A stretch of DNA of 64,000 nucleotides from Patescibacteria group bacterium (GCA_038064915.1 JBBTSB010000004.1:24874-88873); one strand, 5' to 3'. Numbered from the stretch's first letter, positions 19,794-37,424 are shown. The notes: generated by a model not told the origin, from the sequence alone. Numbers and translations are program-made.

Positions 19794-20843
19794 ATGCTCA
19801 ATAAGTTTTTCGGCTTGTTCTCAAAAGATATCGGTATTGACCTAGGAACGGCCAATACGCTCGTATATGTGAAAAATGAAGGTATTATCATTAACGAGCC
19901 CTCGATTGTTGCACTCAACCAAAAGACGGGACAAATTTTAGCCATCGGACAGGAAGCTCGAAAAATGGTCGGAAGAACACCGGCATTCATAGCTGTCACG
20001 AAACCACTCATTGCGGGAGTAGTTTCTGATTTTGAGGTGACTGAACAAATGCTCAAATATTTCATTGATCGCGCACATCAAAAATCATTCACGCTTGCTC
20101 CGCGACCTCGAGTTGTCATTGGTATTCCTTCGAGTATCACCGAAGTGGAAAAAAAAGCGGTAGAAGATGCCGCATACAATGCCGGTGCCCGCGAGGTATA
20201 CCTGATTGAGGAGCCAATGGCTGCGGCTCTCGGTGCCCGACTTCCTGTGCAGGAAGCCGCCGCGAACTTTATCGTTGATATAGGAGGTGGAACCACGGAT
20301 GTCGCCATGATCTCCATGGGAGGTGTTGTTGCATCCCGATCGTTGAAAATTGCTGGAGATCGGCTTACGCAAAATATTTCCCAATTTGTGCGTGAGGAGC
20401 ACAACATGCTCATTGGCGAGACCACGACTGAAACGATCAAGACCACCATTGGCTCTGCCTATCCGCTGGCCGAGGAGCAGACCATGCGCATTCGTGGGAG
20501 GGACGTTCTCACCGGTTTACCAAAGGAGATGACGATCACTTCTCAAGAAGTCCGCAAGGCAATGCATTCCTCTATTCGCTCGATCGTCGTTTCCATCAAG
20601 AGTACGATAGAAGAAACACCGCCAGAACTTATTGCTGATCTCATAAACCGAAGTATTATTTTGACCGGAGGCGGCAGCTTGCTCCGTGGTCTCGACGAAC
20701 TTATCCACCATGAGACAAATCTTCCTGTTCAAATTATTGATGATCCTCTTACGTCCGTCGTGCGTGGATGTGGAATGGTTCTCGAGCACATTGAAGAGTT
20801 AAAACCTATTCTCGTATGGTCGGCAAAAGAAGCATATATTTAA
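19794..20843 (+). CDS. mreB: rod shape-determining protein MreB
   Basis: DIGIDLGTANTLVYV actin-like ATPase start; full length. Confidence 0.95.
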   Translation: MLNKFFGLFSKDIGIDLGTANTLVYVKNEGIIINEPSIVALNQKTGQILAIGQEARKMVGRTPAFIAVTKPLIAGVVSDFEVTEQMLKYFIDRAHQKSFTLAPRPRVVIGIPSSITEVEKKAVEDAAYNAGAREVYLIEEPMAAALGARLPVQEAAANFIVDIGGGTTDVAMISMGGVVASRSLKIAGDRLTQNISQFVREEHNMLIGETTTETIKTTIGSAYPLAEEQTMRIRGRDVLTGLPKEMTITSQEVRKAMHSSIRSIVVSIKSTIEETPPELIADLINRSIILTGGGSLLRGLDELIHHETNLPVQIIDDPLTSVVRGCGMVLEHIEELKPILVWSAKEAYI

Positions 20844-21517
20844 ATTTTCTTTTTCTCCTGTTGGCGTGTGGAATTGTTTTTTTTCTCAATGCCGCTGTTT
20901 TGCATAATATTCTTCCCGACCGTATGTATCGCGTGCTTGGGCTAGTTGTCAAAAAAGATGTGCGAGTGATCGGGGAATCCATCGCTTCAGAAGCGCTTGA
21001 GCGTGAGAACGCCATCTTACGGAAACAGTTGGATGTTGCACAAAAAATTTCCCGAACACTGAAGCTCGCGAACATTATTTCTATCGAGCGGACCATTCTC
21101 GTTTCGACGATTGTTATTGATTTGGGCGTTGCAGATGGTATCGAGGAGGGGATGGTCGTGATTGGCTCCGGAAACGTGCTCACCGGCAGGGTGAGCGAAG
21201 TTTTTGAGCACACCTCGCGCGTGATACTTGTCGATGATCCGCGCATCATCGTGAGTGTCCGCCTTCAGGGAACTTCGCTTCTTGCCGAGTCACGTGGAAA
21301 TCGCAGCAATCGAATTGATCTGAACCTCGTCGCACACAACGAAACGGTGCACGTTGATGATACGATTGTCACGAGCGGATTGGACCAGTTTCCCGAGGGA
21401 TTGGCCGTGGGATGGGTTACCGATGTCCAGCCCGGCGACAACAGCCTTTTCCAAAAAATTTCTGGATCGGTGTTTTTTAATTTTTATGAAAGTCCACTAC
21501 TTTTTGTTATTTTTTAG
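20816..21517 (+). CDS. mreC: rod shape-determining protein MreC
   Basis: N-terminal TM, coiled coil and beta-rich C-terminal domain; position in the mreBCD operon. Confidence 0.8.
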   Translation: MVGKRSIYLNFLFLLLACGIVFFLNAAVLHNILPDRMYRVLGLVVKKDVRVIGESIASEALERENAILRKQLDVAQKISRTLKLANIISIERTILVSTIVIDLGVADGIEEGMVVIGSGNVLTGRVSEVFEHTSRVILVDDPRIIVSVRLQGTSLLAESRGNRSNRIDLNLVAHNETVHVDDTIVTSGLDQFPEGLAVGWVTDVQPGDNSLFQKISGSVFFNFYESPLLFVIF

Positions 21518-21758
21518 TCTTGGTTTCATCCTGGATCAGTTCGGGAGTCTCCTTTTTCCTGGACGATTGTGGGTGACGCCACTGGTTCTGATCGCCTGCA
21601 TGATTGCGGATAGATTGTTGTATCAGCATCTTTTGGTTTTCCTTTTCTGTGCGATCATCATGGATCTTTTTTCAGGACTGCCATTTGGGTTGACGACCAT
21701 GATGTTTGTCATTTTTGGCCTTTGCATTGAGGTTTTGCGCAAATGGATTAGGATATAG
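21486..21758 (+). CDS. mreD: rod shape-determining protein MreD (short)
   Basis: small polytopic protein after mreC; start chosen at the in-frame ATG 21486. Confidence 0.5.
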   Translation: MKVHYFLLFFSLGFILDQFGSLLFPGRLWVTPLVLIACMIADRLLYQHLLVFLFCAIIMDLFSGLPFGLTTMMFVIFGLCIEVLRKWIRI

Positions 21759-21760
21759 AT

Positions 21761-23494
21761 ATGTTACCAAAAAAGTACAACGTACAGCGGCTCGAGGAAG
21801 AGGCCGTAAGTCCGGAAGAAACGCTTTTGGACACGGAGAGCAGACATTCGGCGGTTGAACTGCCCATCAGCCGCAACGTGGTTCGCGCCCTCTATGGCAT
21901 AGTAGGATTGGTGATGCTTGGTTTTCTCGTGCAGGCGTTCCAACTCCAAATTGTTGAAGGAAAAACGTTTGCACTCCTTGCTGATCAAAGTCGATTTAAT
22001 CGCTACCCGGTGCCGTCCTTGCGCGGAGTCATATATGACAGAAACGGAAAGCCCATCGTGGAAAATGAACCTGTTTTCGACTTGGTCGCCGTACGCAGTG
22101 AACTCAACGATGAGGAGCTTCTTGAGGGGCATCAGCATGAGGGAGTTTTTGTAGTAAAAAAAAATATTCCCAAAGAAGAAGCTATTCGTCTTCAAGTTGC
22201 TGAACAGCCGGGTTTGTATGTTGCCACCTATGCTCGAAGGTCGTATGTGTATGGAAAAGCGTTTGGACACGTGGCGGGCTATACGTCGCAAGTCACGCCC
22301 GATGATATTCTTGAAAATGATTCGTTTCATTTACAGGAGCGTACGGGGCGTATAGGACTTGAAGCATTTTATGATTCCATCATTAGGGGAGAAGGATATG
22401 AAATATTTCTCAATCCTGAAACGATTCGGACACAATCTCCCATTTCAGGTCAGAGTATTTTTACCACGTTGGATATTGATGTTCAGCTAAATCTATTTGC
22501 ATCGGTTGATGCGGTATTTCGTTCTGCGGGCGTCCGGCGGGGCGCGGCGATTGTGCAAAACGTAAAGACGGGCGAGGTGCTTGGCATTGTGAGTATGCCT
22601 ACGTTTGATCCAAACGATATCACCGGAGAAGTTCTGCAAAATCAAGATCATCCTTTGTTCAATAGGGTTATTAGCGGTCTTTACAGTCCCGGGTCAACAA
22701 TTAAACCCCTTTACGCTCTCGTTGGACTTACGGAAGGCGTCGTTAATCCTTCGACGACGATTTTTGCGGATGGAGCCATTGAAGTGCAAAGCGAGGTCGA
22801 TTCGTCGCAGTATTTTACTTTTCGAGATTGGAAGGTGCATGGGTGGACTGATATCTATAAAGCGATCGCGGATTCCGTCGATGTCTATTTTTATGCGCTT
22901 GGCGGGGGGTATGGGGAAATTCGAGGTGTCGGTATCGATGTGATTGAAAAGTATTTGCGGTCAGCGCACGCCGATCAGAAAACAGGTATTGATCTTCCGT
23001 TTGAAACAAAGGGGTTTGTGCCTTCAAAAAAATGGAAGAGAGAAACGAAGAATGATTCTTGGTATATTGGAGACACCTACAACGTTTCCATAGGACAAGG
23101 CGACCTTCTGGTGACTCCCCTATGGCTTAATACGTATATTGGGGCAATTGCAAACGGTGGGAAACTCATGAAACCGTACATCGTACAGAGTGAGCCTGAA
23201 GTTGTGGGAACGTTGCCGTTTGATGAAAAAACGATGGCGATTGTGCGCAAGGGAATGCGCCAAACCATTACAGACGGCACGGGACAATTGCTCAAAGATT
23301 TGCCAAAGCCTGTTGCCGCAAAGACGGGAACTGCTCAAGTTACGGGCCGGGGTTTGAATTCTCTTTTTGTCGTCTACGGTCCTACCGATGATCCGGAAAT
23401 TGTCATGACGATACTGGTAGAAAATATCCCACAAAGCCAATCTCTTGCCATGCAGGTTGCACGCCAGTTTTTAATGTGGTATTTTACTCGGTAG
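21761..23494 (+). CDS. mrdA: penicillin-binding protein 2 (transpeptidase)
   Basis: SPGSTIKP, SIGQG and KTGTA motifs; dimerisation and transpeptidase domains. Confidence 0.9.
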   Translation: MLPKKYNVQRLEEEAVSPEETLLDTESRHSAVELPISRNVVRALYGIVGLVMLGFLVQAFQLQIVEGKTFALLADQSRFNRYPVPSLRGVIYDRNGKPIVENEPVFDLVAVRSELNDEELLEGHQHEGVFVVKKNIPKEEAIRLQVAEQPGLYVATYARRSYVYGKAFGHVAGYTSQVTPDDILENDSFHLQERTGRIGLEAFYDSIIRGEGYEIFLNPETIRTQSPISGQSIFTTLDIDVQLNLFASVDAVFRSAGVRRGAAIVQNVKTGEVLGIVSMPTFDPNDITGEVLQNQDHPLFNRVISGLYSPGSTIKPLYALVGLTEGVVNPSTTIFADGAIEVQSEVDSSQYFTFRDWKVHGWTDIYKAIADSVDVYFYALGGGYGEIRGVGIDVIEKYLRSAHADQKTGIDLPFETKGFVPSKKWKRETKNDSWYIGDTYNVSIGQGDLLVTPLWLNTYIGAIANGGKLMKPYIVQSEPEVVGTLPFDEKTMAIVRKGMRQTITDGTGQLLKDLPKPVAAKTGTAQVTGRGLNSLFVVYGPTDDPEIVMTILVENIPQSQSLAMQVARQFLMWYFTR

Positions 23495-23496
23495 AC

Positions 23497-23952
23497 ATGA
23501 CACAATATTTTTCTGCTGAAGGTCTAGAAAAGCTTAAACAAGAGTTGGCTGAACGCGAAGGAACCATTCGTGCCGAGATAGCTCGGCGTATTTTGGATGC
23601 AAAAGAACTGGGTGATCTTTCCGAGAATGCGGAATATGCAGAAGCAAGAGAATCGCAAGGGATGAATGAAGGGAGAATTCAAGAACTGCAAGATATCATC
23701 AAAAACGCCATCGTCATCGGGCCGAACCAGCAAAACAAAACCGTCATGGTTGGTTCTACAGTGAGTGTAAAATTCAATGGCAATGAACGGCAATTTACCA
23801 TTGTTGGTCCGTCGGAGTCCAATCCTACGCAAGGCTTTATTTCCAACGAATCTCCGCTGGGTATGGCATTTATCGGCAAAAAAAAGGGAGAAGAGTTTGA
23901 AGTTCTCGTTCCCAGTGGTAAAATGAAGTATAAGATTTTAGATATCAAGTAA
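23497..23952 (+). CDS. greA: transcription elongation factor GreA
   Basis: MTQYFSAEGLEKLKQEL... coiled-coil N-domain and FKBP-like C-domain. Confidence 0.9.
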   Translation: MTQYFSAEGLEKLKQELAEREGTIRAEIARRILDAKELGDLSENAEYAEARESQGMNEGRIQELQDIIKNAIVIGPNQQNKTVMVGSTVSVKFNGNERQFTIVGPSESNPTQGFISNESPLGMAFIGKKKGEEFEVLVPSGKMKYKILDIK

Positions 23953-25196
23953 TGCCACTGGATGAAATCAAGCAAGCTCGGCTTGAAAAATTAAAGAAGA
24001 TCGAAGATCCCTACCCCACGCATACATCGCGTACGCATACGATTGCGCAAGCCGATGGTGAGGACGTTTTGATTTTGGTGGGTCGTGTGATGGCAATGCG
24101 GGGCCACGGAGCGATCACGTTTATGGATTTGCGGGATGGGACGGGATCAATTCAACTTTTTCTTGAAGGCGAGAAAAATCTCATAGACATTGGGGATTTT
24201 ATAGAAGCCGAAGGAAAGCTTTTTATCACAAAAGCTGGCGAGAAAACCCTCCGCGTCTCGAGCTGGAAGATGCTCGCAAAATCTCTCCTCCCACTTCCTG
24301 AAAAATGGCACGGATTGCAGGATGTCGAAGAGCGCTATCGCAAGCGTTACCTGGATTTGCTCATGAATCCGGAGACCAAGGCCATTTTTGAACAGCGGGC
24401 GTTGATTATCCAGAAAATGAGAACTTTTCTCCTAGAACATCATTTCGTAGAAGTGCAAACTCCTACGCTACAGCCTCTCTATGGCGGTGCGTCGGCGCGG
24501 CCGTTTAAGACGCACATGAACGCCTTGGATATGGATTTATTTTTGCGGATAGCCCCGGAGCTTTATCTTAAGCGATTATTGGTGGGGGGTTTTGAGCGTG
24601 TGTTTGAATTTACAACTAATTTTCGCAATGAAGGCATGGATCGGGAGCACAATCCGGAATTTTCCGCCGTGGAGTTTTATATTGCATACAAAGATTACGA
24701 ATGGGGAATGGATTTTATTGAGGATTTGCTGTGCACGATTGCACCGGAAAAATTCAAAAAACCCTTCAAAAGAATTAGATATGCCGAGCTTATGCAACCG
24801 TATAATTCATTGGAAGACGAAGTTTTCAAAGAGAAAGTACGCCATACGCTCATCCAGCCAACATTTGTCTACGATTATCCAAAAGACATGTTCCCGCTGG
24901 CAAAAGACGTATTTCAGTTTTATGCAGGAGGGTTTGAATTGGTTAAGGCGTTCAGTGAACTCAATGATCCGATTGACCAGCGCGAGCGTTTTGCTGCACA
25001 GGAAAATTTGAGAGCGAAGGGCGATGAGGAAGCACAACGTATGGATGAGGATTTTATTGAAGCACTCGAATATGGTATGCCGCCAGCCGCAGGTTTTGGC
25101 ATCGGCCTGGATCGTTTGATTGCCTATTTGACCGACTCTCACTCCATCCGGGAAGTAATCCTGTTTCCGTTGATGAAACGAAAGAAAGACGAATAA
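23952..25196 (+). CDS. lysS: lysyl-tRNA synthetase (class II)
   Basis: OB anticodon-binding domain and class II motifs 1-3. Confidence 0.9.
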   Translation: MPLDEIKQARLEKLKKIEDPYPTHTSRTHTIAQADGEDVLILVGRVMAMRGHGAITFMDLRDGTGSIQLFLEGEKNLIDIGDFIEAEGKLFITKAGEKTLRVSSWKMLAKSLLPLPEKWHGLQDVEERYRKRYLDLLMNPETKAIFEQRALIIQKMRTFLLEHHFVEVQTPTLQPLYGGASARPFKTHMNALDMDLFLRIAPELYLKRLLVGGFERVFEFTTNFRNEGMDREHNPEFSAVEFYIAYKDYEWGMDFIEDLLCTIAPEKFKKPFKRIRYAELMQPYNSLEDEVFKEKVRHTLIQPTFVYDYPKDMFPLAKDVFQFYAGGFELVKAFSELNDPIDQRERFAAQENLRAKGDEEAQRMDEDFIEALEYGMPPAAGFGIGLDRLIAYLTDSHSIREVILFPLMKRKKDE

Positions 25197-25251
25197 AAAG
25201 CCAAAACCCCGTCGTACAGACCGGGGCGGCCGCGCGCGGGGTTGGGTGGTA

Positions 25252-25455
25252 CTAGAAATGCGAGTAGGGATCTAGACGTCGCATGTCACTCTTGAGCTCA
25301 GAAAATCGACCCGGATAGAGTCGGTCAAGCTCTTGGATGACCTCCAGGACTTCGCCGAAATCCGGACCATCGGCAAGCCACGCTCGAATCCTACTTTCAA
25401 TTATGCGCTTCGAGGCGCTTCTGTCCTGGGAGAGTTTTCGGAGCTGTTCTTTCAT
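25252..25455 (-). CDS. small hypothetical protein (67 aa) in GC-rich islet B/C
   Basis: SD GAGAGGAG 4 nt upstream; palindrome GCTACGatatataaCGTAGC in its promoter region; terminator hairpin CCCCG...CGGGG plus T run at its 3' end. Confidence 0.45.
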   Translation of the reverse strand: MKEQLRKLSQDRSASKRIIESRIRAWLADGPDFGEVLEVIQELDRLYPGRFSELKSDMRRLDPYSHF

Positions 25456-25718
25456 ATCTCTCCTCTCGCTTCCTGACGGGTGGAAGCTACGATATATAAC
25501 GTAGCAACTGTCAATAAGTGACAGTGAGCCTCCCGCTCAAAAAACGAAGCCCCGTTCAACACTCTGTCGAACGGGGGTTCGACTAGCGCGAGCGGGGCAG
25601 GGCGGGGGAGCAATCTTCATTGAAGTCCTCCAATGGTTTTATAAATAGCATGAAAAATATGTACTGTCAAGCATAAAAAATGACGCCGCCCCGCTATGGT
25701 CGACTGTGGTTAAGTCGT

Positions 25719-25964
25719 TCAGCGGGGCGTGGAACCTTCCTCCTTCAGAAGCTCTAGATGTCCGATTACTTGCTGGTCTTTCCACCAGCGTGCCGCCTTT
25801 CCGATCACTTCTCCCTCTAGTACCCACCACTGGGAGTTGATGAAGGGAAACGGACATCGAATTCGATGCAGCGTGTAGATGCCTGGCTGTAACAGATGTG
25901 TCCGCGCATCGGAGAGATCGGAGGCATCGATGAGCTCCAGGGGGTACTTCGTTCTGACCTTCAT
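25719..25964 (-). CDS. small hypothetical protein (81 aa) in GC-rich islet B/C
   Basis: SD AAGGAGG 5 nt upstream of ATG; followed (minus strand) by a 9-bp stem plus T6 terminator; the ORF track extends it to 26141 antisense of serS, which is rejected. Confidence 0.45.
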   Translation of the reverse strand: MKVRTKYPLELIDASDLSDARTHLLQPGIYTLHRIRCPFPFINSQWWVLEGEVIGKAARWWKDQQVIGHLELLKEEGSTPR

Positions 25965-26018
25965 GGGACCCTCCTTGGGATTCCAAGAATACGATATTTG
26001 TGCTAAATTTACAAGATC

Positions 26019-27290
26019 ATGCTTGATATCAAATTTATTCGCGAAAACCCCGACATCGTAAAGCAAGCGGCGAAAAACAAAAACGTTGCCGTTGATATTG
26101 ATAAACTTCTCGCACTTGATGAGCGCCGGAGACATTTGCAAGGGGAACTTGATCAGGCAAATAGCTTTCGCAATGCCATTGCTGATGCGTCAAAGAGCGG
26201 GAAGCCCAGCCCCGATCAAATCGCCGAAGGCAAAAAATATAAAGAGCAAGCGAGTACGCTTGAGGGAGAGTTGAAGATCGTAGAAACTGAATTTCATGAG
26301 CTCATGCTCATGGTGCCGCAAATTTCAGATCCATCAGTGCCTGAAGGTGCGAAGGATGATGATAACAAAGAAATCCGAACATGGGGCGAAATTCCAAGCT
26401 TTGATTTTGAACCAAAAGATTATATGGCCATCATGGAGTCATTGGATTTGGTGGATGTGGAACGTGGCGCAAAAGTTTCCGGCTTCCGCGGCTATTTTCT
26501 CAAAAATGAAGCTGTTCTGCTTTCGCAGGCATTGTGGATGTTCGCGCTTTCCCAGCTTATAAAAAAAGGCTTTACACCGATTATCGCTCCCGCCATTGCA
26601 AAAGAGTTGGCATTTCGTGGTACAGGCTGGTTACCGCAAGGGAAAGATGAGATATACAAAATAGGGGAGGACGAATTTTTGATCGGAACTTCAGAAGTTT
26701 CCGTCATGGCATACCATAGCGATGAAATTTTGAAAGAAAGCGATCTTCCAAAAAAATACGTTGCATTCTCGCCTTGTTTTCGCTCCGAAGCCGGGTCATA
26801 TGGCAAAGATACGAAAGGCATCCTTCGTGTACATGAATTTTATAAAATCGAGCAAGTCATTCTTGGCAAGGCCGATCATGAGGATTCGGTGCAGTGGCAT
26901 GAAGAAATTACCAAAAATTCTGAAGAACTTGTCCAGGCTTTGAATCTACCCTATCGGGTTGTACTGAATTGTGCAGGAGATCTGGGGCTTGGCCAGGTCA
27001 AAAAATACGATATTGAAACGTGGCTTCCGTCGCAACAGCGCTACCGCGAAACGCACTCGGCCTCCTATTTTCATGACTTTCAGACACGCCGGTTGAATAT
27101 CAAATATCGAGACAACAAAGGTGATACGCAGTTTGCCTACTCACTCAACAACACCGCCATTGCCACCCCGCGAATTCTAGCCAACATCCTAGAGAACTAC
27201 CAGACTAAATCGGGAACCGTCAAAATCCCCGAAATTCTCAAGCCCTGGATGATGGGCTGTGACGAAATATTCCCGCCGTCCACTTCGTGA
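26019..27290 (+). CDS. serS: seryl-tRNA synthetase
   Basis: MLDIKFIRENP N-terminal coiled-coil arm and class II catalytic core. Confidence 0.95.
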   Translation: MLDIKFIRENPDIVKQAAKNKNVAVDIDKLLALDERRRHLQGELDQANSFRNAIADASKSGKPSPDQIAEGKKYKEQASTLEGELKIVETEFHELMLMVPQISDPSVPEGAKDDDNKEIRTWGEIPSFDFEPKDYMAIMESLDLVDVERGAKVSGFRGYFLKNEAVLLSQALWMFALSQLIKKGFTPIIAPAIAKELAFRGTGWLPQGKDEIYKIGEDEFLIGTSEVSVMAYHSDEILKESDLPKKYVAFSPCFRSEAGSYGKDTKGILRVHEFYKIEQVILGKADHEDSVQWHEEITKNSEELVQALNLPYRVVLNCAGDLGLGQVKKYDIETWLPSQQRYRETHSASYFHDFQTRRLNIKYRDNKGDTQFAYSLNNTAIATPRILANILENYQTKSGTVKIPEILKPWMMGCDEIFPPSTS

Positions 27291-27929
27291 AAGTTTTGTC
27301 TCGATCTCCGGATGCCGTTTGAGATAATCGGCGACTTTTGGTGCGATGATGTCTTCTTGGCAAATCAACTGGATATGTTTTGGCATCAAGCTTTTGAGAA
27401 CGCCGTAGTGCGTACAACCAAGTATCAAAGTATCAATGTTGTGTTGTGAAAGCGGTTTTACGTACTCATCGACAGTTTTTTTATAAATTTTTCCCGATTC
27501 GATCATCGGTACGAGCTTGGGTGCGGCTTGTTGGAAGACTTCAGCATCAGGAAGAAGTTTTTTTATTTCAGATACATAGGTGCCCGAGTCGACGGTACTT
27601 TGTGTCGCAAGAACTCCGATCCGCTTACCGTGGGCCTCTTCTGCGGTCGGAATTATAATACCCAATGCGCGGTACCCCTCGTGCTGTAATCTGCGCAAGG
27701 CACGAGCAGAGGCCGTATTGCAAAACAAAAAAACTATTGCGCAATCGTGCGAGAATAAAAAGTCTAATGCCCTTTTTGTGAAGCGATAAACGTCCTCTTG
27801 AGATTTGTCGCCGTAGGGAAGGTTTTTGGTATCGCCCAGATATACGTAATCGTATTGTGGTAACGCCGCAACCACCGGCTTCATCAAAAAAAGCCCTCCA
27901 AGTCCTGAATCAAATACACCGATTTTCAT
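27189..27929 (-). CDS. murI: glutamate racemase
   Basis: VFDSGLGGL and GCTHYG motifs; the C-terminal ~30 codons overlap serS convergently. Confidence 0.85.
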   Translation of the reverse strand: MKIGVFDSGLGGLFLMKPVVAALPQYDYVYLGDTKNLPYGDKSQEDVYRFTKRALDFLFSHDCAIVFLFCNTASARALRRLQHEGYRALGIIIPTAEEAHGKRIGVLATQSTVDSGTYVSEIKKLLPDAEVFQQAAPKLVPMIESGKIYKKTVDEYVKPLSQHNIDTLILGCTHYGVLKSLMPKHIQLICQEDIIAPKVADYLKRHPEIETKLSRSGRREYFVTAHHPGLENFGDFDGSRFSLVVL

Positions 27930-27997
27930 GATTTGTCAAATTTAGCGTTCTATGCTACAGTAAAGCCTCGCCCAACAAGCGATTTTATTTTACCACA

Positions 27998-29314
27998 ATG
28001 TTGATTCCCTGGCTTGCTATCTTCGATATTGGCACGATTCGGGCAAACTTCAAAAAGCCGATCGATGTCGCTAAACTCACAACTAAAAGTGAAAATTTTG
28101 CGTTGCTCGTACCCATTTTTAACGACATCAAGTTTCTCCACAATGTAGAATTTCTCAAAGATTACGCCGAACATGTCGTCCTGTGTACGACCACGCAGGA
28201 AACGCCGGAGTTTCTAAGCAAGCTTACCAACCTTGCCAACGAGCACAAGTTTCGCATTAGCTACTCTACGATCGCTCCCGGAAAAAAGAATCCGTGGGCC
28301 ATTTACAACAAAACCCTTCTCGCCCACGAAACAGTACTCAAAGAAAGTGTCGCAGGCATGCGTGAAAAATTTGTGATTTTCATTGACGCGGACACGGTTG
28401 TAGATGGGGATTTGCGTTTACTTGCTGGTGCCATGGAAGATCATAATTTTGATCTGGCATCCGTCAAAGTCTTGCCGATGCATCGAACAAGAATCATCCA
28501 AAAACTCCAAGGCGTGGAGTATGACATCGCGATGCAAGCGCGCCTCATTTATCCGTGGCTTACCAGTGGGGCAGGTATGATCGCCAAGCGGGAGATGATG
28601 GAAAAGATCATGAAAAATCATTCGCTGTTTTTTAACGGTGGCGATATCGAAATCGGCAAGCTCGCGGATCTCCTGGGCTACCACGTGGGCCACATTCCAA
28701 TGAAGTTCTATACGGAAATTCCAGCTACCACCATGGCGTGGATCCGTCAGCGCTTCTCCTGGATGTCCGGATGTTTTCGCCACGCGATCATCAACTTTCA
28801 TCACAATCTACGTCACCCGTTTCACTTTATCTACTTCTCGTTCATGATCTATTTTCTGTTCCCGCTCAAAGTCTATCAGATGGCGCAGCACTGGATGATC
28901 CTTCCCTATATCCTAGCGCTTTACACGTTGCTTACGATTGTCGCCAACTGGAAAGTCCGTAGCCGTTGGATGCTCGTATTTCCCATTTACGCGCTTTTTC
29001 AGGTGCTCGTGCTGATTTGGTTTGGTGTCTTTCGCTATGTTGTCACGGTGTATAAAACGGGAAACTTTGGGCGTATCAAAATCCATCACGCCCATCATGC
29101 AAAAGCCCCGAAGCGATTTGCCTCCTTCAAGGCCGTTCTGAATCACTCGACCATTTTTGCCGTGATCGCGCTGATTATTTTCTCTACGAGCTTCTCCCTC
29201 CAAAAACGCGTATTTGGTAGAACCTTTGAAACCGAGCTGATTATTATTTCTGCAAAAAATGCTACGTATAACGCTGTTGCACAACTCTTTCCTATCCGCG
29301 TAGCGAAGAATTAA
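27998..29314 (+). CDS. membrane-embedded family 2 glycosyltransferase (processive synthase-like)
   Basis: FIDADT (DxD) and QRFSW (QxxRW-like) motifs; C-terminal TM bundle. Confidence 0.7.
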   Translation: MLIPWLAIFDIGTIRANFKKPIDVAKLTTKSENFALLVPIFNDIKFLHNVEFLKDYAEHVVLCTTTQETPEFLSKLTNLANEHKFRISYSTIAPGKKNPWAIYNKTLLAHETVLKESVAGMREKFVIFIDADTVVDGDLRLLAGAMEDHNFDLASVKVLPMHRTRIIQKLQGVEYDIAMQARLIYPWLTSGAGMIAKREMMEKIMKNHSLFFNGGDIEIGKLADLLGYHVGHIPMKFYTEIPATTMAWIRQRFSWMSGCFRHAIINFHHNLRHPFHFIYFSFMIYFLFPLKVYQMAQHWMILPYILALYTLLTIVANWKVRSRWMLVFPIYALFQVLVLIWFGVFRYVVTVYKTGNFGRIKIHHAHHAKAPKRFASFKAVLNHSTIFAVIALIIFSTSFSLQKRVFGRTFETELIIISAKNATYNAVAQLFPIRVAKN

Positions 29315-29425
29315 AAAGTATGTCGAACTTGTGTCATGTCGCCGACGCTTCGCTCTTCTGAAAGAGGTGGTCACTCCGGTCACCTCTTTCAAACCTTATT
29401 AACAACATTAACGTCTAAACTATAT

Positions 29426-29611
29426 ATGGAAGATCCAATAATCATACAACAACCGTCAGGTGGTTCCGGATGGGGAGCAGGGTTTGGAATGGTTATCGCG
29501 GTGATTATTTTGGTCGCCGCCGCTATCTATCTTGTTCCCCGTATTCGCAGTCAGGACAAAGAACGAGATGTAGATATAAAGGTCAATCTCCCCACGGGCG
29601 AGCAACAATAA
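29426..29611 (+). CDS. small single-TM protein (61 aa)
   Basis: Gly-rich N-terminus, one TM segment; GC above average; no SD. Confidence 0.3.
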   Translation: MEDPIIIQQPSGGSGWGAGFGMVIAVIILVAAAIYLVPRIRSQDKERDVDIKVNLPTGEQQ

Positions 29612-29820
29612 ATCCGGGGTATTAAAAAGCGCACAGTTGCCTGGCGCTCTTTCCCCGCAGCCCAATTGCTGCGGGGTTGCGTCGTGCTGGCGTGGTGGAA
29701 TCTTGAAAGCCATACAGAAGCGTCGACGGCTCGTCATAACATAAACTCCTATTGGGGGGATCCCGGTCCCCGTGCCGTACTCCGCTTCCATGGTATGCTT
29801 TTTTGCGGTATAGTCAATCA

Positions 29821-30486
29821 ATGCTTGAGTTTTTAAAGTTCTATAATCGTCCTCAAACCTACAAGGCGGAGATTCGCGTTGAGGTAGAAAATAGGAGCAA
29901 TAAAAAAGCAAAAGGACATCTTGTGGTGCCGTTGCCGCGGACGACGGAATATCAGACAACAACACCGGAGTTTCGCGAGCCGACGATGGCATTTGATCTT
30001 GAACTGGAAGCAGGAGAAAAAAAATCCGTGTCGGTTGTTTTCAAGGCCCACGTGATGCCACGCAAATACAATGGCAAGATTGCACCAGAAATTGTCCAGG
30101 CAAATGAATTTGTGATAAGCTACCTGACCTACGGCAATGCTATAGATGGGTTGTACACCGCGCAAGAGGCGCGAGAGAAGCGGGTCGTGGACTGTGGCGG
30201 ATTTGATACGCTCTTGCAAGATGAGCTCAAGAAGAAGGGCATTGCGAGCAATGTAGTGGCCGGATTTTGGAGCGATGGGAAAATGCATGCTTGGCTAGAG
30301 ATTGAAGGAAATATTTCCGCGGATCCGTCTATGGAATGGCTTCGTGCACGAAGAAAAACCAAAAAATCGGGAAAACTTGGTTTTGTCGGCAGTGACCGGA
30401 TAGTTTTTTCGATGGGAGAGCCCTTCTTACAAAAACCAATCACTGATTTACCACATGAAAACCATCTTTACATCACTCGCGCCTAA
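29821..30486 (+). CDS. transglutaminase-like cysteine peptidase domain protein
   Basis: CGGFDTLL...GKMHAWLEIEG fits the Cys...His-x-W-x-E core of the transglutaminase-like superfamily. Confidence 0.55.
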   Translation: MLEFLKFYNRPQTYKAEIRVEVENRSNKKAKGHLVVPLPRTTEYQTTTPEFREPTMAFDLELEAGEKKSVSVVFKAHVMPRKYNGKIAPEIVQANEFVISYLTYGNAIDGLYTAQEAREKRVVDCGGFDTLLQDELKKKGIASNVVAGFWSDGKMHAWLEIEGNISADPSMEWLRARRKTKKSGKLGFVGSDRIVFSMGEPFLQKPITDLPHENHLYITRA

Positions 30487-31615
30487 CGTCGAAAAAGACG
30501 ATGCTCAACTTGCGTTTCGGCTTTTGTTTTCGCCGTGGCAATGGAAGCGTGGTCCATATATACAAAAATTTTATGAAACGCTGAAAAACTATCTCGGTCG
30601 CGAATATGCGTTCGTGTTTGAAAGCGGCCGTACGGCACTCTATGCAATTCTCAAGTGTTTGGATCTGAAAACAGATGACGAAGTTCTTTTACAGGCTTTT
30701 ACATGCGTTGCCGTGCCCAATGCGGTACTTTGGGCAGGAGCAAAGCCGGTGTATGTGGATTGCAACGATAGCTATACGATGTCAGTTGAAGATCTGAAGC
30801 GAAAAATTACCCCGCGGAGCAAAGTACTTATCATCCAACATACGTTTGGAATTGAATCGGATATGCCCGAACTCATGGCTGTCGCGCGAGAGCACAAGCT
30901 TTTTGTCATTGAAGATTCAGCACATGCACTTGGGTTGGTCAAGCCTCAAGCTGATGCGGCGTTTTTTAGTTTTGGACGCGACAAGATTATATCTTCTACG
31001 TTTGGTGGCGCGGTGGCGACGAATGATCCGGTTTTGGGAGAGCACCTTCGCGCGATCAAGCTCGGTATGCTGTATCCTTCGGGAAGATGGATTTTACAGC
31101 AGTTATTTTACCCCATCATCATGTACATCGTACGAAAAACATACGATTATGGAATCGGGAAAGTATTACTCTCCCTTGTACGATCATTTCGATTGATTTC
31201 CAAGCCGGTGTATCCGGAAGAAAAACTTGCAAAAAAGCCCGCGTGGCAACCACGCCGATTGCCCAATGCCATAGCACTACTCGCTTTGCAACAGTTTGTG
31301 AAACTTGAGAGATTTAATACGCACCGCAAACGTATTGCTTCGATGTATCAAAAACATTTTTCCGGTTCAGGAATTTTGCGATTTGCGCTTCATGCAAACG
31401 TTCCTCGGCAAAAAGGAATATTCCTGGGAGATTGGTACACGACCGCAATAGCGCCTGCTGGAGTGAGCTATGATGCCATCGGCTACGATCCTTCAACCTG
31501 TCCAAATGCCGAGCGGCTTACTAGGGACATCATCAACCTTCCTACCGATATTCATATTACCGAACAAGATGCACAGCGGATCATTTCTACAATCAAAAGC
31601 CTGGGAGCAAACTAA
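30455..31615 (+). CDS. DegT/DnrJ/EryC1/StrS family PLP-dependent aminotransferase
   Basis: AFTCVAVPNAVLWAGAKPVYVDC, EDSAHALG and SFGRDKIISSTFGGAV motifs. Confidence 0.8.
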   Translation: MKTIFTSLAPNVEKDDAQLAFRLLFSPWQWKRGPYIQKFYETLKNYLGREYAFVFESGRTALYAILKCLDLKTDDEVLLQAFTCVAVPNAVLWAGAKPVYVDCNDSYTMSVEDLKRKITPRSKVLIIQHTFGIESDMPELMAVAREHKLFVIEDSAHALGLVKPQADAAFFSFGRDKIISSTFGGAVATNDPVLGEHLRAIKLGMLYPSGRWILQQLFYPIIMYIVRKTYDYGIGKVLLSLVRSFRLISKPVYPEEKLAKKPAWQPRRLPNAIALLALQQFVKLERFNTHRKRIASMYQKHFSGSGILRFALHANVPRQKGIFLGDWYTTAIAPAGVSYDAIGYDPSTCPNAERLTRDIINLPTDIHITEQDAQRIISTIKSLGAN

Positions 31616-32420
31616 CCAAGCGCTCGGCCATCAGACATTCCGGGTCGGTGGTGTGCTTTGTATAAAAACGATTGCCCGTCGCGGGACGTTTTTACTTGTT
31701 CCCCATACACGGACGATCAATCAGGAAATCATCGAACTCGGGCGGAACGAGCACTGCGATTTTATCCGCGTTTGTCCGTTGACTCTCGATTCTCCGGAGG
31801 CACGTTTAAACTTTAAACTCTTAAACTTTAAACGTGCTCCTATTCACGTCCATCCGGAACACGCATGGATTGTGGAACTCAAGGATGATGAGACATTGTT
31901 TGCAGGTATGCGCAAAACCACACGCTACTCTATAAAAAAAGCACAAAAGGACGGAATAGTTGCCCACATCAGTACGGACCTTGAAGCATTTTGGAAGCTG
32001 TATATACTAACTGCTCAACGACAGCAGTTTGTGCCATTTTCGCGAAAGTTACTGGAAGCGGAATTCCAAGCTTTTGGAGACGATGCATTCATCGTCATGA
32101 CTGACCACGCCTCTGCATTTGTCGTGACAACGGAAGATGAAGCCTTCTATCATCATGGTGCATCAACCCATCACCCAACGGCTTCGTATCTAGTGCAATG
32201 GACGGCGATGCAGGAGGCACGGCGCCGCGGAAAGAAATTTTACAATTTCTGGGGGGTGTGGGACGATCCCCATTCACCGCAGTATGGATTGTCTCAATTC
32301 AAACGAGGCTTTGGAGGGTTTCAAGAATCATACGTGCCGACGCAAGATTTTATTTTGACAAAAAAATACTGGCTTAATTACATCATTGAAAAAATTCGCA
32401 AGCTACAAAGAGGATTTTGA
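31569..32420 (+). CDS. FemAB-family aminoacyltransferase, copy 2
   Basis: FLQSKAWEQ N-terminus and C-terminal YLVQWTAMQEARRRGKKFYNFWGV; start set at ATG 31569 to avoid overlap with the DegT gene; contains the TTTAAAC repeat element. Confidence 0.7.
   Translation: MHSGSFLQSKAWEQTNQALGHQTFRVGGVLCIKTIARRGTFLLVPHTRTINQEIIELGRNEHCDFIRVCPLTLDSPEARLNFKLLNFKRAPIHVHPEHAWIVELKDDETLFAGMRKTTRYSIKKAQKDGIVAHISTDLEAFWKLYILTAQRQQFVPFSRKLLEAEFQAFGDDAFIVMTDHASAFVVTTEDEAFYHHGASTHHPTASYLVQWTAMQEARRRGKKFYNFWGVWDDPHSPQYGLSQFKRGFGGFQESYVPTQDFILTKKYWLNYIIEKIRKLQRGF
31804..31833. repeat. TTTAAAC-heptamer repeat element, in frame in femAB copy 2
   Basis: GTTTAAACTTTAAACTCTTAAACTTTAAAC encodes RLNFKLLNFKR. Confidence 0.65.
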
Positions 32421-33198
32421 GGAGCAAAAACGCCGCAAGTTTATTTCGCGTGCGAACCGTTTTATTATTTCTGCTCTCATCACTTCTGCGATCGCAGTTG
32501 TTCTTTTGTTTTTAGCGAATCTTTTTGATGTTCGGGTATTGACGATTCAGTCGCCGTCGTTGATTCCTGCCGAAGACGTGGAAGCAAAAGCGTGGGAAGT
32601 GCTCAATGACCGTCGTTTTGGCATAGCTCGCAAGAAGAATATTCTCCTTTTTTCCCCGCAAAAAATCGGTCCCGCGCTGCAAAAAGAATTTCCGCGTATT
32701 GATGCAGTCGATATCCGTCGCACCTCACTACACGAACTTTCCATTGTTGTTTACGAGCGGGTATCTGTGGGTTTGTGGTGTATTATGATCATGCAACAGT
32801 GCTACTACTATGACGCGTCGGGAACCGCATATGCCAACATCGTGCCATCCTCCGGATATCTTTTTGTTGCGGTTAATGATTATCGGGATCGCAACATATC
32901 ACTTGGTGAGTCAGTCGCCCCTGAAGACTGGCGTTTGCATATCTCTGAAGTCAAAAAAATTCTTCAGTTTGGAGGAATACCTATCACCTCAATTGAAATA
33001 CCCGGAGATTCTCATGATGAGTTTATTATCATTACCCGTGAAGGATGGAAGATTTTTTATGTTAACGATGGCTCGATTCGCACGCAGACCAACAGTCTCT
33101 TGGTGTTTTTGCGCGAAAAACTTGCCCCTTCAGCACGTGCAAATCTGGAATATGTTGATCTTAGAATCGAGGACCGGATATATTATAAACAAAAATAG
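32386..33198 (+). CDS. FtsQ/DivIB-like cell division protein (single TM plus POTRA-like domain)
   Basis: N-terminal cytoplasmic tail, one TM, then a beta-rich extracytoplasmic domain. Confidence 0.5.
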   Translation: MKKFASYKEDFEEQKRRKFISRANRFIISALITSAIAVVLLFLANLFDVRVLTIQSPSLIPAEDVEAKAWEVLNDRRFGIARKKNILLFSPQKIGPALQKEFPRIDAVDIRRTSLHELSIVVYERVSVGLWCIMIMQQCYYYDASGTAYANIVPSSGYLFVAVNDYRDRNISLGESVAPEDWRLHISEVKKILQFGGIPITSIEIPGDSHDEFIIITREGWKIFYVNDGSIRTQTNSLLVFLREKLAPSARANLEYVDLRIEDRIYYKQK

Positions 33199-34855
33199 AG
33201 TTACCGATGGTAGTGACGGGCTGATAGTCGGCAAGCCAGGAGTATTTTTTGTATTTTTCGTTTTGCAGGAAGGTCGCTGATATTGCGAGCCAGCCATCGG
33301 TTTGGCTCTTTTGCAAAAAATCTCGCTCATTTTTATATTTATCCGATGTAAGCCACACGAAGGAATCACCCAAGTAGTACTGCTGGTCCGCCCAGCCGAA
33401 GTAATCAAGCTCGATCTTTTTGATATCGTTTTTCTCAACCCAATCAGCGAAACGCTTCAGGTCTTGTCCCCAATCCAGGTTTGAATCGACGACATACCGA
33501 TAGCCACCACTCGGACCACCGACGGTTTGGTTAAAATATGTTAAGTAATATGGGAAAATTCGAAAGTTTTCCAAAAGAAACCATGCGATCAATACCGGCA
33601 CCGCAAAAAATACTTTCCTAGGCAAACGAACAAGTTGCCCGGAAACCAGAATGATCATGAACGGATATACGGGCAGGAGATGCCTCACGCCGATATTCAA
33701 GGTGCTATGGATGCTCGTGGCCCAATAGATCACGAGCCATAAAATCATCGCGATTTCGTCGATGTGATCTTTAAACTTGAAACGTGAAACTTTAAACCTT
33801 GCTATCGCGATTGTGATAGCGGTCAATAACAGCGCGAGCCAGGAAAGCGGTTCTTTGATCAGATAAACGAACGGAAAATAGATCGGTCCCGCGCTCGTGG
33901 TAACGGTATCTCGAAAGTAGACCGTATTTCCGCCGGCGGATCGTTGTGTTACCATAAGCAACCCCAAACCATACTGCGCAGGAGCCCGCAGGATCGGTTT
34001 TCCGGATGCCCACACAACCGGATCAGCAAGTAGTCGATTTCCAAATGTTTGGAGCAACGTTTCGGTGTCGTGATGTTGGCGGTCAATTGGATAGTGCCAA
34101 ACGTGAAATGCATACACAGGCCATACGACAACAACAAACCCAACGATCATCAACAAGGCTGTCTTGGTGATCATTCGCCAATTCCAAGTGCAAGCGACAA
34201 TCACGAAAAGAGGAATAAGAAGAACAGTCGAAAATTTCATGAGCAAAGCCAGTCCAAACATAACAGCTGCATACCAAAAATATTTTCGTGTTGGTTCTTT
34301 TAAGTAACGTACAAACCAATAAGTTGCAATGAGTACGCCAAGCGCCGCAGGAATATCGGTAGTCACAAAGCGGCTATGCGCCATGACGGTCGGTGAAAAT
34401 GAAAAGAGCGTGACCGCCAAAAGGCCAGCCTTGTCTCCATAGCGTTGTCGCGTCCACCAAAACACCATCCATCCAGCAATAATAAAGATGATAAGCGGAG
34501 GAATTTTTGCTACATGAGTAATGAGCTCAGCATTGTTGCCGGTATGGTAAATCAGTTTCCGACCAAACTCCCACTGGTCGTTGATGTTGGTGGTCCAGGA
34601 ATTTGTTGCAAATGCGTCGTGATTGAGTTCAAGAGGTAGGAGCGCAATACCGGCAAGATCTTTTGCCAACGGCGGATGCTCGGGATTGAGCCGCATATCC
34701 TGCTTTGCAACATACGAATATCCTGCACCAATGTGAGGATCCTCATCAACGATAATTGAATCATTCCAAGCGCTGGCATAAGCAACGACAGCGGCGATTG
34801 CGATAATGATTACTGCACTAGCGCGTGACAATCGAAATGAGAGTTTCATATTCAT
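33161..34855 (-). CDS. GT-C glycosyltransferase, PMT/ArnT (GT39/GT83)-like
   Basis: IVDEDPH loop-1 motif and about 11 TM segments; contains the TTTAAAC repeat element. Confidence 0.7.
   Translation of the reverse strand: MNMKLSFRLSRASAVIIIAIAAVVAYASAWNDSIIVDEDPHIGAGYSYVAKQDMRLNPEHPPLAKDLAGIALLPLELNHDAFATNSWTTNINDQWEFGRKLIYHTGNNAELITHVAKIPPLIIFIIAGWMVFWWTRQRYGDKAGLLAVTLFSFSPTVMAHSRFVTTDIPAALGVLIATYWFVRYLKEPTRKYFWYAAVMFGLALLMKFSTVLLIPLFVIVACTWNWRMITKTALLMIVGFVVVVWPVYAFHVWHYPIDRQHHDTETLLQTFGNRLLADPVVWASGKPILRAPAQYGLGLLMVTQRSAGGNTVYFRDTVTTSAGPIYFPFVYLIKEPLSWLALLLTAITIAIARFKVSRFKFKDHIDEIAMILWLVIYWATSIHSTLNIGVRHLLPVYPFMIILVSGQLVRLPRKVFFAVPVLIAWFLLENFRIFPYYLTYFNQTVGGPSGGYRYVVDSNLDWGQDLKRFADWVEKNDIKKIELDYFGWADQQYYLGDSFVWLTSDKYKNERDFLQKSQTDGWLAISATFLQNEKYKKYSWLADYQPVTTIGNSIFVYNISGPRF
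33769..33798. repeat. TTTAAAC-heptamer repeat element (reverse orientation), in frame in the GT39-like gene
   Basis: CTTTAAACTTGAAACGTGAAACTTTAAACC; the minus strand encodes RFKVSRFKFK. Confidence 0.55.
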
Positions 34856-35762
34856 TCAACATAATACCCAGAAGTAGTAGGAATAACGCTAGTGTTGCGA
34901 TTGCATGGCTTTCCTGTACGCGATGTTCATGCAGTACAACCTCATGCACGTCATATATTTGATACCATTTCCGACTGAAATCATATATCCACCACAATCC
35001 TTCCCCGGCGAAAATCATCAAGACGGGCAATAGGAGAACACTTTGACAACTTGCCACAAGCCACGATAGCAGAAGTACTTGCACGGTGGGAAAGTGTCCG
35101 TGAATTTTCCGACGTCGCCAGAGTTTTATGATGTTTCTCAACAAGCCAATAGCGCTCAATAGAGCAACGGGCCAAAAAAGCATGGGATACCCTACTACCC
35201 AGTTCATGCTGCCAAATCCATTCACCAGGTAGTGCCAGATGACGGGTGTAGCGACAATAATGCCCGTCACCATAAGCAGTGCAAACCCACTCATGAGATG
35301 ATTACGCGACGCAAGGTATTTATCATGCGAAAAATCACGCTTGATCGAGTGCCAGTAGGCCGCAACAACAACGATCAGGACCAAAGGTACGAAAACAAAA
35401 GATGTTGATGAGTAAAAGCCGAGGCCGAGCAAGCCTCCTGAAAGCGCAAAGTCAGAGAGTCGAGCGGACGTTTTTCCTTTCCAGAAAAAATACAAGCCCC
35501 ACACCAAAAAAAACGGTGCTGGAGAAATATCCCATGAAGAAACAGCCAGGAAGAAACTTGCGAGACCAGCAATTTCCCAATTAAAAAGTTTCTTGGTCAG
35601 TAGGTACGTTCCGGCAACCGTAAGCACACTTAACAGAGCGTAGGGAATAAAGACGTGATCAAGGCCTCGGAACCGAAACACAATGGCGACTACCAAAACA
35701 ATCACCACCACCCACCATTCGTGATTTCTGTGTTTCGTAGGATATATTGGCATTGAAATCAT
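34818..35762 (-). CDS. polytopic membrane protein, GT-C/ArnT-like N-terminal region
   Basis: multiple TM segments; adjacent to and overlapping the GT39-like gene. Confidence 0.45.
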   Translation of the reverse strand: MISMPIYPTKHRNHEWWVVVIVLVVAIVFRFRGLDHVFIPYALLSVLTVAGTYLLTKKLFNWEIAGLASFFLAVSSWDISPAPFFLVWGLYFFWKGKTSARLSDFALSGGLLGLGFYSSTSFVFVPLVLIVVVAAYWHSIKRDFSHDKYLASRNHLMSGFALLMVTGIIVATPVIWHYLVNGFGSMNWVVGYPMLFWPVALLSAIGLLRNIIKLWRRRKIHGHFPTVQVLLLSWLVASCQSVLLLPVLMIFAGEGLWWIYDFSRKWYQIYDVHEVVLHEHRVQESHAIATLALFLLLLGIMLNEYETLISIVTR

Positions 35763-35799
35763 TATACTCTTGCATTGTGCACTTTAGTATGCTAAAGTT

Positions 35800-36102
35800 G
35801 TGGATATGCAATGGAACACCAAGCAAACAAATGAGCTTTTCATGGCTATTTTACAGCTCAAAACGACCGACGAGGCTCGACGCTTTTTCCGTGATTTGCT
35901 TACGGAAGACGAGCTTATAGAATTCGGTAACCGTTGGCTTGCCGCACGGCTCCTTGCCAAAGGCGTTTCCTATACAAAAATCCAAGACCGCACCCGTCTT
36001 TCCAGCACCACCATCGCCCGCGTCTCCAAATGGCTGAACAAAGGTATGGATGGGTACAAATTGATGATCGCCCGCCTCTCTCATCACACCAAACCCTTGT
36101 AG
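35800..36102 (+). CDS. YerC/YecD-like TrpR-related DNA-binding protein
   Basis: LAARLLAKGVSYTKIQDRTRLSSTTIARVSKWL HTH pattern of the YerC family. Confidence 0.7.
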   Translation: MDMQWNTKQTNELFMAILQLKTTDEARRFFRDLLTEDELIEFGNRWLAARLLAKGVSYTKIQDRTRLSSTTIARVSKWLNKGMDGYKLMIARLSHHTKPL

Positions 36103-36181
36103 GAAGGGATTGTTTGCTTTCTCACGCGTTCAATCTCTTCCTGGAAGGGATTTTTTACTTTCAGGAAGGAGAGGAGAATTC

Positions 36182-36340
36182 ATGGAGTTCGAGATCGTCA
36201 ATGAGTTCATCCGCAAGGTTCAACAGCTTATCCTGGACCGAGAAGCAGGTCTCGAGACGCGCGATGCGGTACTTGATGCACTCGAAGAGCTTCTTGAAGA
36301 CGCCAAGCGTTCTCTCCATAAGCTACGCGTTGCTGAATAG
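36182..36340 (+). CDS. small acidic helical protein (52 aa)
   Basis: SD AGGAGAGGAG 6 nt upstream of ATG; the ORF track extends it upstream to 36110. Confidence 0.35.
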   Translation: MEFEIVNEFIRKVQQLILDREAGLETRDAVLDALEELLEDAKRSLHKLRVAE

Positions 36341-36385
36341 TACAACAGGGGTTGGCAGATATCCCAAAAACTGCCTTTTCAAGAA

Positions 36386-36413
36386 TTGACATCCAGGAGG
36401 TAGACGATATAAT
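36386..36413 (+). promoter_or_regulatory. promoter for the coiled-coil gene pair
   Basis: TTGACA, 16 nt, TATAAT; the ATG at 36423 is about 9 nt downstream (near leaderless). Confidence 0.5.
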
Positions 36414-36422
36414 TGAGAAATC

Positions 36423-36979: not shown

Positions 36980-37064
36980 AGCATGATTTTCAACACACGC
37001 AAAACTGGATTCTGGAGCTGGACTTCACGTAACCCGTAAAGTCCGAATTTAATTTGAAAATACG

Positions 37065-37097
37065 ACTCCCTTCGGACTTTCCGGAGGGAGTTTTTTG
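37065..37097 (+). terminator. rho-independent terminator after the coiled-coil pair
   Basis: ACTCCC ttcggactttccgga GGGAGT followed by TTTTTT. Confidence 0.55.
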
Positions 37098-37389: not shown

Positions 37390-37424
37390 TTCCGTTCCAT
37401 TGAGCGGTCCAACCGCTCAACTGC

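Follow-up and report, generated by a model that had tools for sequence, protein, structure and literature searches.

The spacer between lysS and serS in a Patescibacteria group bacterium (GCA_038064915.1, JBBTSB010000004.1:24874-88873, a stretch of 64,000 nucleotides (nt) that we refer to throughout as the window) is probably an accessory insertion at the lysS-serS junction, an islet made up of three small transcription units, each of them autonomous. One of the three small open reading frames (ORFs) in it, ORF-A, is a genuine protein gene belonging to a very rare, undescribed family of mostly beta domains, and this family appears to evolve fast; the other two, ORF-B and ORF-C, would be lineage-specific orphans. 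The units appear to be built to one plan, in which a sigma-70-like promoter precedes a short ORF led by a strong Shine-Dalgarno (SD) site, and the unit closes with a CCCCG...CGGGG hairpin and its U-tract (Table 1). The host would be a Parcubacteria-type Patescibacterium whose otherwise compact greA-lysS-serS cluster received the islet.

The window comes from a groundwater Patescibacteria metagenome-assembled genome. Identical sequence is present in assemblies from the Hainich H51 well, and four independent assemblies of the population carry the islet itself without a difference. NCBI lists its two proteins, under Patescibacteria group bacterium, as 'hypothetical protein AAB420_01360' and 'AAB420_01355'. 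The islet is bounded by lysS (23952-25196) and serS (26019-27290), both on the plus strand, with greA and a PBP2-type gene upstream and murI downstream. A first-pass annotation had described a GC-rich spacer of about 820 nt here, and this description holds, with an enrichment that is modest: the GC content falls in the top 1.6% of 822-nt windows, though it is not the maximum, positions 37100-37800 being richer. The fraction of G and C at third codon positions (GC3) is 0.64 in ORF-A and 0.55 in ORF-B, compared with 0.47 in host genes. No second copy or paralog of the islet was found within the window. The LysS encoded next to it, at 414 amino acids (aa), is shorter than its relatives, with which alignments span about 440-490 columns.

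The greA-lysS-serS order recurs in Patescibacteria loci, where the gap between lysS and serS is mostly 1-70 nt (1 nt in locus L002) and where the longer spacers are taken up by unrelated genes, on the plus strand and native in composition. Because the spacers of relatives are commonly this short or carry unrelated genes, we consider the islet to interrupt an ancestral junction, one that seems to be a recurrent insertion point. Genes inserted there on the plus strand lie at 7369-7689 in L001, 4852-5568 in L010, 4355-5046 in L014, 5326-6033 in L073 and 3770-4372 in L027. The first-pass annotation had set an equally long, coding spacer of native composition in relatives against the idea of an islet; what relatives have is mostly the short gap, and the islet is absent from them. 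Neither ORF-A nor ORF-B had a homolog in 160 related loci, ORF-B had none in 168 loci, and in a metagenome scan with the SerS N-terminus (no close relative; best match 65% identical) neither was found in any of 80 loci. Since the islet breaks the lysS-serS junction, serS would be transcribed from its own promoter, within a 54-bp divergent region.

ORF-A and its relatives

Both minus-strand ORFs named in the first-pass annotation, of 81 and 67 aa, are present with the SD sites it gave, and ORF-A, the longer, scores best of the six frames under host codon usage. Its putative promoter, P1, overlaps the divergent promoter of serS. An exhaustive HMMER search of 1.84 billion representative proteins, a check that the first-pass annotation had proposed, returned only three true homologs. 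P0004 (85 aa) is a full-length homolog with 44% identity (E 5e-15), P0007 (177 aa) contains the ORF-A domain in two tandem copies, and P0008 (183 aa) carries it at the N-terminus. Two other matches, P0003 and P0005, were dismissed on inspection as repetitive junk, and two long proteins matched in multiple stretches, P0006 (3212 aa) and P0009 (2962 aa), were set aside unread. The alignment of ORF-A, P0004, P0008 and both copies in P0007 (A1, five sequences) defines a family motif, L-x-PG-x-Y-x3-R-x-x-(C)P ... W-x-VL-x-G-x-x-IG-x-A-x-x-WW, in which L25, G28, P38, W46, V48, L49, G51, I54 and G55 are invariant. A hidden Markov model (HMM) of A1 finds every family member, and nothing else, in 168 loci or the window.

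The first-pass annotation had recognised no family in either islet protein, and the other searches agree. In Pfam, NCBIfam, PADLOC and PHROGs (E<=10), ORF-A and ORF-B matched nothing but a chance PHROG at E 0.52, and PDB sequence searches with each ORF singly or with the profile A1 returned nothing relevant. In a word-indexed search of 5.8 billion proteins ORF-A and ORF-B matched only themselves, and A1 added just P0004. No relatives came up when IMG/VR and JGI metagenomes were scanned with A2, P0007, P0008, ORF-B and the conserved hairpin pattern, and tblastn and blastn searches of GenBank phages and PLSDB plasmids returned none either. One phage protein, gp72 of Gordonia phage Bachita (E = 4), was rejected as a relative after a check with the A1 HMM.

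From the single sequence, AlphaFold2 gave a useless model of ORF-A (predicted local distance difference test, pLDDT, of 43); from the five sequences, it gave one with pLDDT 86.9 and a predicted template modelling score (pTM) of 0.71, in which seven strands are followed by one C-terminal helix. Foldseek found no significant neighbour of this model in PDB or BFVD, the best PDB match having E 0.85 with a template modelling (TM) score of at most 0.45 and the best viral match E 0.15 with TM 0.48-0.50. Among the weak top matches are SH3 domains and small uncharacterised phage proteins. As modelled, ORF-A resembles the SH3-like small beta-barrels in being small and beta-rich with one C-terminal helix, but the structural match lies below significance and no relation is seen at the level of sequence. 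The family is thus one that Pfam, NCBIfam, PHROGs and PDB lack and whose confidently predicted fold has no significant structural neighbour. ORF-A may act as a small binding module, lacking catalytic motifs, in an accessory or conflict-type role.

The two more distant homologs reside on short contigs of very different composition (GC 0.67 and 0.37; L087 and L088), in each case within a tight same-strand array of small unknown genes. These contexts fit a mobile or phage-like distribution, and no phage hallmark was found in them. A partial ORF upstream in L087 was checked and is not a family member.

P0004 is more informative, as it is carried next to serS on two short contigs from other metagenomes (L085 and L086), which represent a sister organism. 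In L085, P0004 and serS are divergent, and over its first 55 residues this SerS shares 85% identity with that of the window. Behind P0004 come a hairpin homologous to T1, the hairpin behind ORF-A, and then a MazG-like gene in convergent orientation, with neither ORF-B nor ORF-C present. Since the MazG-like gene is without a detectable counterpart in the window, the serS neighbourhood has been rearranged between the two lineages. The MazG-like fragment itself (L085 467-676, minus strand; also in L086) has weak Pfam and PHROG support. Identity between the window and L085 at the three codon positions is 0.52/0.67/0.48 for ORF-A and 0.82/0.95/0.55 for serS, and the similar divergence at third positions suggests that the two ORF-A genes are orthologs as old as the flanking serS. 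On the same comparison, the ORF-A protein would evolve far faster than SerS while the terminator hairpin is constrained: the T1 region is 80% identical to L085 in DNA, compared with 61% for the ORF-A coding region. T1 in L085 also folds stably (-30.2 kcal/mol, z -4.26), and among the differences between the two hairpins is one compensatory change, of U-A to C-G, next to the loop UAACCAC, which is invariant. P0004 has a GC3 of 0.68 as against 0.35 for the adjoining serS fragment. The high GC3 retained by both ORF-A genes is not explained by simple vertical drift, and independent site-specific acquisition of ORF-A is possible.

The units of ORF-C and ORF-B

ORF-A and ORF-B are separated by a complete third unit that the first-pass annotation had missed. 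Its promoter, P2, is the best match in the islet, and its terminator, T2, is the strongest, ranking third of the 31 terminator-like sites that a scan listed in 20001-40000. The P2-T2 RNA (a 105-nt fold) has a folding energy of -37.6 kcal/mol (z = -3.75). ORF-C runs through T2, with its UGA stop directly after the U-tract, and a 5' hairpin takes in its SD and AUG. A C-rich stretch within ORF-C resembles the non-coding 3' untranslated region of ORF-B, upstream of T3. We lean towards an RNA of about 100 nt, rather than a peptide gene, as the product of this unit, and such an RNA could be made with or without the 27-aa peptide. Its predicted pairing with neighbouring mRNAs was no better than that of shuffled controls.

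Scored by host codon usage, ORF-B likewise comes out ahead of the other five frames, and its GC content by codon position (0.63/0.39/0.55, GC1>GC3>GC2) has coding-type periodicity. No homolog sharing 5-residue words was found for it, 'no homolog' here referring to a word-based rather than an exhaustive search, and neither ORF-B nor ORF-C had a relative detected by any search made. The SD site, frame score, GC periodicity and terminator point indirectly to ORF-B as a gene. The operator-like palindrome that the first-pass annotation placed upstream of it, GCTACGatatataaCGTAGC, is present at 25486-25505 (20 bp, 9/10 pairs). It is marginally beyond chance, given that the window has four such palindromic 20-mers and that one within 822 nt has a p of about 0.05, and a role as operator is putative. 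A second inverted repeat next to it, CTGTCA-N5-TGACAG, contains a TTGACA (25514-25509, the P3 region), and the TTGACAGT of P2 recurs here at 25514-25507. The promoter of ORF-B is uncertain because no canonical -10 element lies at the right distance from this TTGACA. ORF-B, a small, basic and probably helical protein, may bind the inverted repeats that cover its promoter.

The three stem-plus-U-tract terminators of the first-pass annotation all exist, at coordinates that it gave approximately, though a strict scan detects T2 alone. Judged as intrinsic terminators, by a GC-rich hairpin directly followed by a U-tract, T2 qualifies fully, T1 has a strong hairpin (-27.2 kcal/mol, z = -5.35) with an offset U6 and overlaps the ORF-A stop codon, and T3 is weaker (-24.9 kcal/mol, z -1.9). 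They have a common design, in which a CCCCG...CGGGG outer clamp surrounds an inner hairpin. Hairpins of the form CCCCG-N(8-38)-CGGGG occur four times in the 64 kb, where 1.14 are expected, and three of the four are inside the islet, all with U-tracts on the minus strand. Terminators in this orientation, T3 foremost, would keep islet transcription from running antisense into lysS.

Table 1. Positions of the islet, its predicted elements and the other GC-rich spacers with small ORFs, counted from the first letter of the window
Feature	Position	Strand	Description
Islet	25197-26018		lysS-serS spacer, 822 nt, GC 0.526 (mean of the window, 0.464)
ORF-A	25719-25964	-	81 aa; SD AAGGAGG at 25976-25970, 5 nt ahead of ATG
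P1, putative promoter of ORF-A	25986-26014	-	TTGTAA, 17 nt, TATTCT; read from the sequence, below scan threshold
T1	25675-25729	-	Two-tier hairpin CGCCCCGCU...AGCGGGGCG, inner CGACU/AGUCG stem; stem 25729-25721/25695-25687; U6 at 25680-25675, starting 6 nt beyond the stem
P2, promoter	25642-25670	-	Perfect TTGACA (25670-25665), 17-nt spacer, extended -10 TGcTATTTA
ORF-C	25537-25620	-	27 codons, MKIAPPPCPARASRTPVRQSVERGFVF; SD GGAGG at 25631-25627
T2	25539-25600	-	Long GC hairpin, core 25576-25550, 12 pairs, 7 GC; U6 at 25544-25539
Two inverted repeats upstream of ORF-B	25486-25524		CTGTCA-N5-TGACAG at 25524-25508; GCTACG-N8-CGTAGC at 25505-25486
ORF-B	25252-25455	-	67 aa, basic, probably helical; SD GAGAGGAG, core AGGAG at 25464-25460, 4 nt before ATG
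T3	25195-25243	-	Hairpin AACCCCG...CGGGGUU (about 25243-25205), U-rich tail UUUUGGCUUUUU to 25195; abuts the lysS stop
Putative serS promoter	25981-26009	+	TTCCAA, 17 nt, TGcTAAATT; ends 9 nt before the serS ATG
Second GC-rich spacer	4667-5284	+	GC 0.516; TTGACA-18-TATACT at 4705-4734, short leader, strong terminator 4795-4825
Small ORF of the second spacer	4882-5097	+	SD GAGGAGG; 71-aa putative two-helix membrane peptide, GC3 0.76, no Pfam match; then terminator 5229-5248
Third GC-rich spacer	40973-41457	+	GC 0.542; SD GGAGGAGGG, 58-aa hydrophobic peptide from 41074 (MSPVRAIMGVAGALVACFSFLGMM...)

Translation signals in the host and the islet

The islet differs from the genes around it in how translation appears to start. 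As a host set we took the 49 non-overlapping ORFs of at least 150 aa and looked for SD cores in the region -20 to -4. A 5-mer core was found at none of the 49, compared with 3.8% of random positions, and a 4-mer core at 4/49, compared with 10.6%; a TAnnnT ending 4-12 nt before the ATG was present in 22/49 host genes, as against 10.4% at random. Core genes at 8179, 26019, 27929, 49281 and 54761 exemplify the pattern. Because SD cores are absent and TAnnnT is frequent near the ATG, the core genome looks largely leaderless and SD-independent. The gene serS is a case in point, where a putative promoter ending 9 nt from the ATG would yield a leaderless or near-leaderless mRNA, and in L085 a TATAAT lies 6 nt ahead of the serS ATG. 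A subgroup of Parcubacteria has been reported to be without the anti-SD motif (PMC9297842), and the SD-poor core genes of this host fit the anti-SD loss reported there. All three islet ORFs have strong SD sites.

Two further GC-rich spacers, at 4667-5284 and at 40973-41457, also have SD-led small ORFs, and each encodes a putative two-helix membrane peptide; in the latter, a second small hydrophobic ORF is probably present just downstream. Between the islet and the spacer near 4700, the leader regions show no sequence similarity. Since other GC-rich spacers share the SD-led small ORFs, the style of the islet may mark a native class of SD-dependent small genes and not imported DNA; the SD contrast may mark either. 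SD-led small ORFs in a nearly SD-free genome provide a handle on the partitioning of initiation in lineages for which loss of the anti-SD is reported (PMC9297842). In a bolder version of these ideas, to which we attach little credence, ORF-A would found a new, fast-diversifying small beta-domain family common to Patescibacteria and mobile or phage-like elements and acting in genetic conflict (anti-defence, exclusion or host-symbiont interaction), and, together with ORF-A, the other GC-rich spacers with small genes would make up an SD-dependent class of translation, set apart in a host whose core genes are leaderless and SD-free. If this were true, SD use would be the mark of genes that are regulatory or imported, a distinct set in an otherwise SD-independent cell.

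Competing explanations for the islet

Several observations weigh against an accessory islet of three working units. The signals that speak for ORF-B and ORF-C as genes are SD sites, frame score and terminators alone; a 67-codon ORF is not very improbable by chance in DNA of 52% GC, the coding score of ORF-C is negative, and the promoter matches at P1 and P3 are either weak or non-canonical. The orthology of ORF-A is documented by one related contig (677 nt), its third-position divergence, like that of serS, points to long residence, so that a foreign origin is unproven, and SD-led small ORFs are found in other spacers of the same genome. In one alternative, only ORF-A would be functional, with ORF-B and ORF-C as chance ORFs in the GC-rich leftover of an old insertion (prophage or mobile debris) and the hairpins as relics or insulators. 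GC-rich DNA does give long ORFs by chance, as spurious overlapping ORFs of 115 and 140 aa in the islet stretch attest, and ORF-B and ORF-C lack homologs in the searches made and are missing from L085. We nevertheless regard such decay as unlikely, though well short of negligible: every islet ORF has an SD core of at least five nucleotides at a spacing of 4-6 nt, an arrangement expected by chance at about 1% per ORF and seen at none of the 49 host starts, ORF-B is the best of its six frames with coding-type GC periodicity, an intact terminator stands behind each ORF, and the islet is unchanged in all four assemblies of the population.

In a second alternative, ORF-C, with its Pro-Pro-Pro, would be a leader peptide translated across T2 from P2, and the progress of the ribosome, for instance through EF-P-dependent stalling at the prolines, would set read-through into ORF-B. 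P2 is indeed the sole near-consensus promoter upstream of ORF-B, given that P3 has no properly spaced -10, and ORF-C has a strong SD, spans the entire T2 hairpin and ends right behind its U-tract; the spacer at 4700-5100 has a like layout of promoter, short terminated leader and SD-led small ORF. This likeness to attenuators of the trp, his and pheST type and to polyproline stalling leaders, in promoter, SD, short ORF over a terminator and downstream gene, does not extend to an antiterminator alternative or to a run of regulatory codons tied to the downstream gene. No antiterminator fold was found, as both competing folds retain a GC stem beside the U-tract; the negative coding score of ORF-C and the similarity of its C-rich stretch to the non-coding DNA upstream of T3 make it resemble a terminator module; and there are no ORF-C homologs on which conservation of the peptide could show. 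We consider attenuation an attractive rival but an improbable one. Less probable still, and in our view very unlikely, is the toxin-antitoxin (TA) or regulator-effector pair raised by the first-pass annotation, in which ORF-B would bind the palindrome and control or neutralise ORF-A. Like type II TA modules, the islet has two small proteins, neighbours on one strand of an atypical accessory locus, with a palindrome upstream of one, and TA loci are often orphan-like and fast-evolving. The genes of type II modules, however, typically lie less than 30 nt apart in one operon, whereas the 263-nt gap between ORF-A and ORF-B holds T1, P2, ORF-C and T2, an arrangement in which the two would not be co-transcribed. 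The partner is not conserved, the L085 ortholog of ORF-A being followed by the convergent MazG-like gene and not by ORF-B, and the duplication (P0007) and fusion (P0008) of the ORF-A domain in small-gene arrays are unlike a toxin with one antitoxin. Nor do the PADLOC, Pfam, NCBIfam, PHROGs and PDB searches yield a toxin or antitoxin family, the islet having no match to the recognised superfamilies (RelE/ParE, MazF, VapC, HicA, Phd, RHH, HTH). With separate promoters and terminators, ORF-A occurring without ORF-B and no family match, the pair is not supported. Finally, long structured leaders are common in front of aminoacyl-tRNA synthetase genes and the spacer has strong hairpins, so that the ORFs might be incidental to a cis-regulatory leader (a T-box or another riboswitch, for example) that serves serS or lysS. 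We give this next to no weight. An Rfam search of 24900-26300 on both strands (E<=10) found no T-box or leader and just a chance-level sX5, and there was no Rfam match at the gathering threshold in the window; the U-tracts of the hairpins are all on the minus strand, the candidate serS promoter ends 9 nt from its ATG, and ORF-A has protein homologs. The Rfam result, the strand of the U-tracts and the ORF-A homologs effectively refute such a leader.

We return, then, to an accessory islet of small autonomous units. Its closest counterparts are small islets of ORFan or accessory genes placed among conserved housekeeping genes ('morons' and similar horizontally acquired cassettes that bring a promoter and a terminator with them), which it resembles in its atypical composition, broken synteny, per-gene promoters and intrinsic terminators, and lack of known families, as well as in the compact same-strand small-gene arrays that hold the distant ORF-A homologs (L087 and L088). 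It differs from these in that the islet yielded no sign of a phage, an integrase, an att site or a flanking repeat and that phage, plasmid and IMG/VR collections held no matches, and in that ORF-A has apparently been beside serS since before the two lineages split. A flanking 12-nt direct repeat was rejected as a target-site duplication, being attributable to chance. An integron cassette was likewise discarded: T1 contains ACTTAAC (ACCTAAC in L085), as might be sought in the R'' core (RYYYAAC) of an attC site, but has no downstream GTTRRRY partner (R'), and no integrase is nearby. As a locus the islet is ordinary, consisting of hypothetical small genes in an accessory region, and it solves no long-standing question; it does show a way in which a conserved cluster of synthetase genes can be divided and given a new promoter.

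Elsewhere in the window, the GC-richest stretch, at 37100-37800 (GC 0.54-0.63), has no convincing ORF. Rfam gives a sub-threshold match to RT-3 only (E 0.15) and ARAGORN finds nothing there. The stretch may be a divergent structured RNA, and terminator-like hairpins lie on its plus strand at 37064-37092, 37425-37450 and 37565-37582.

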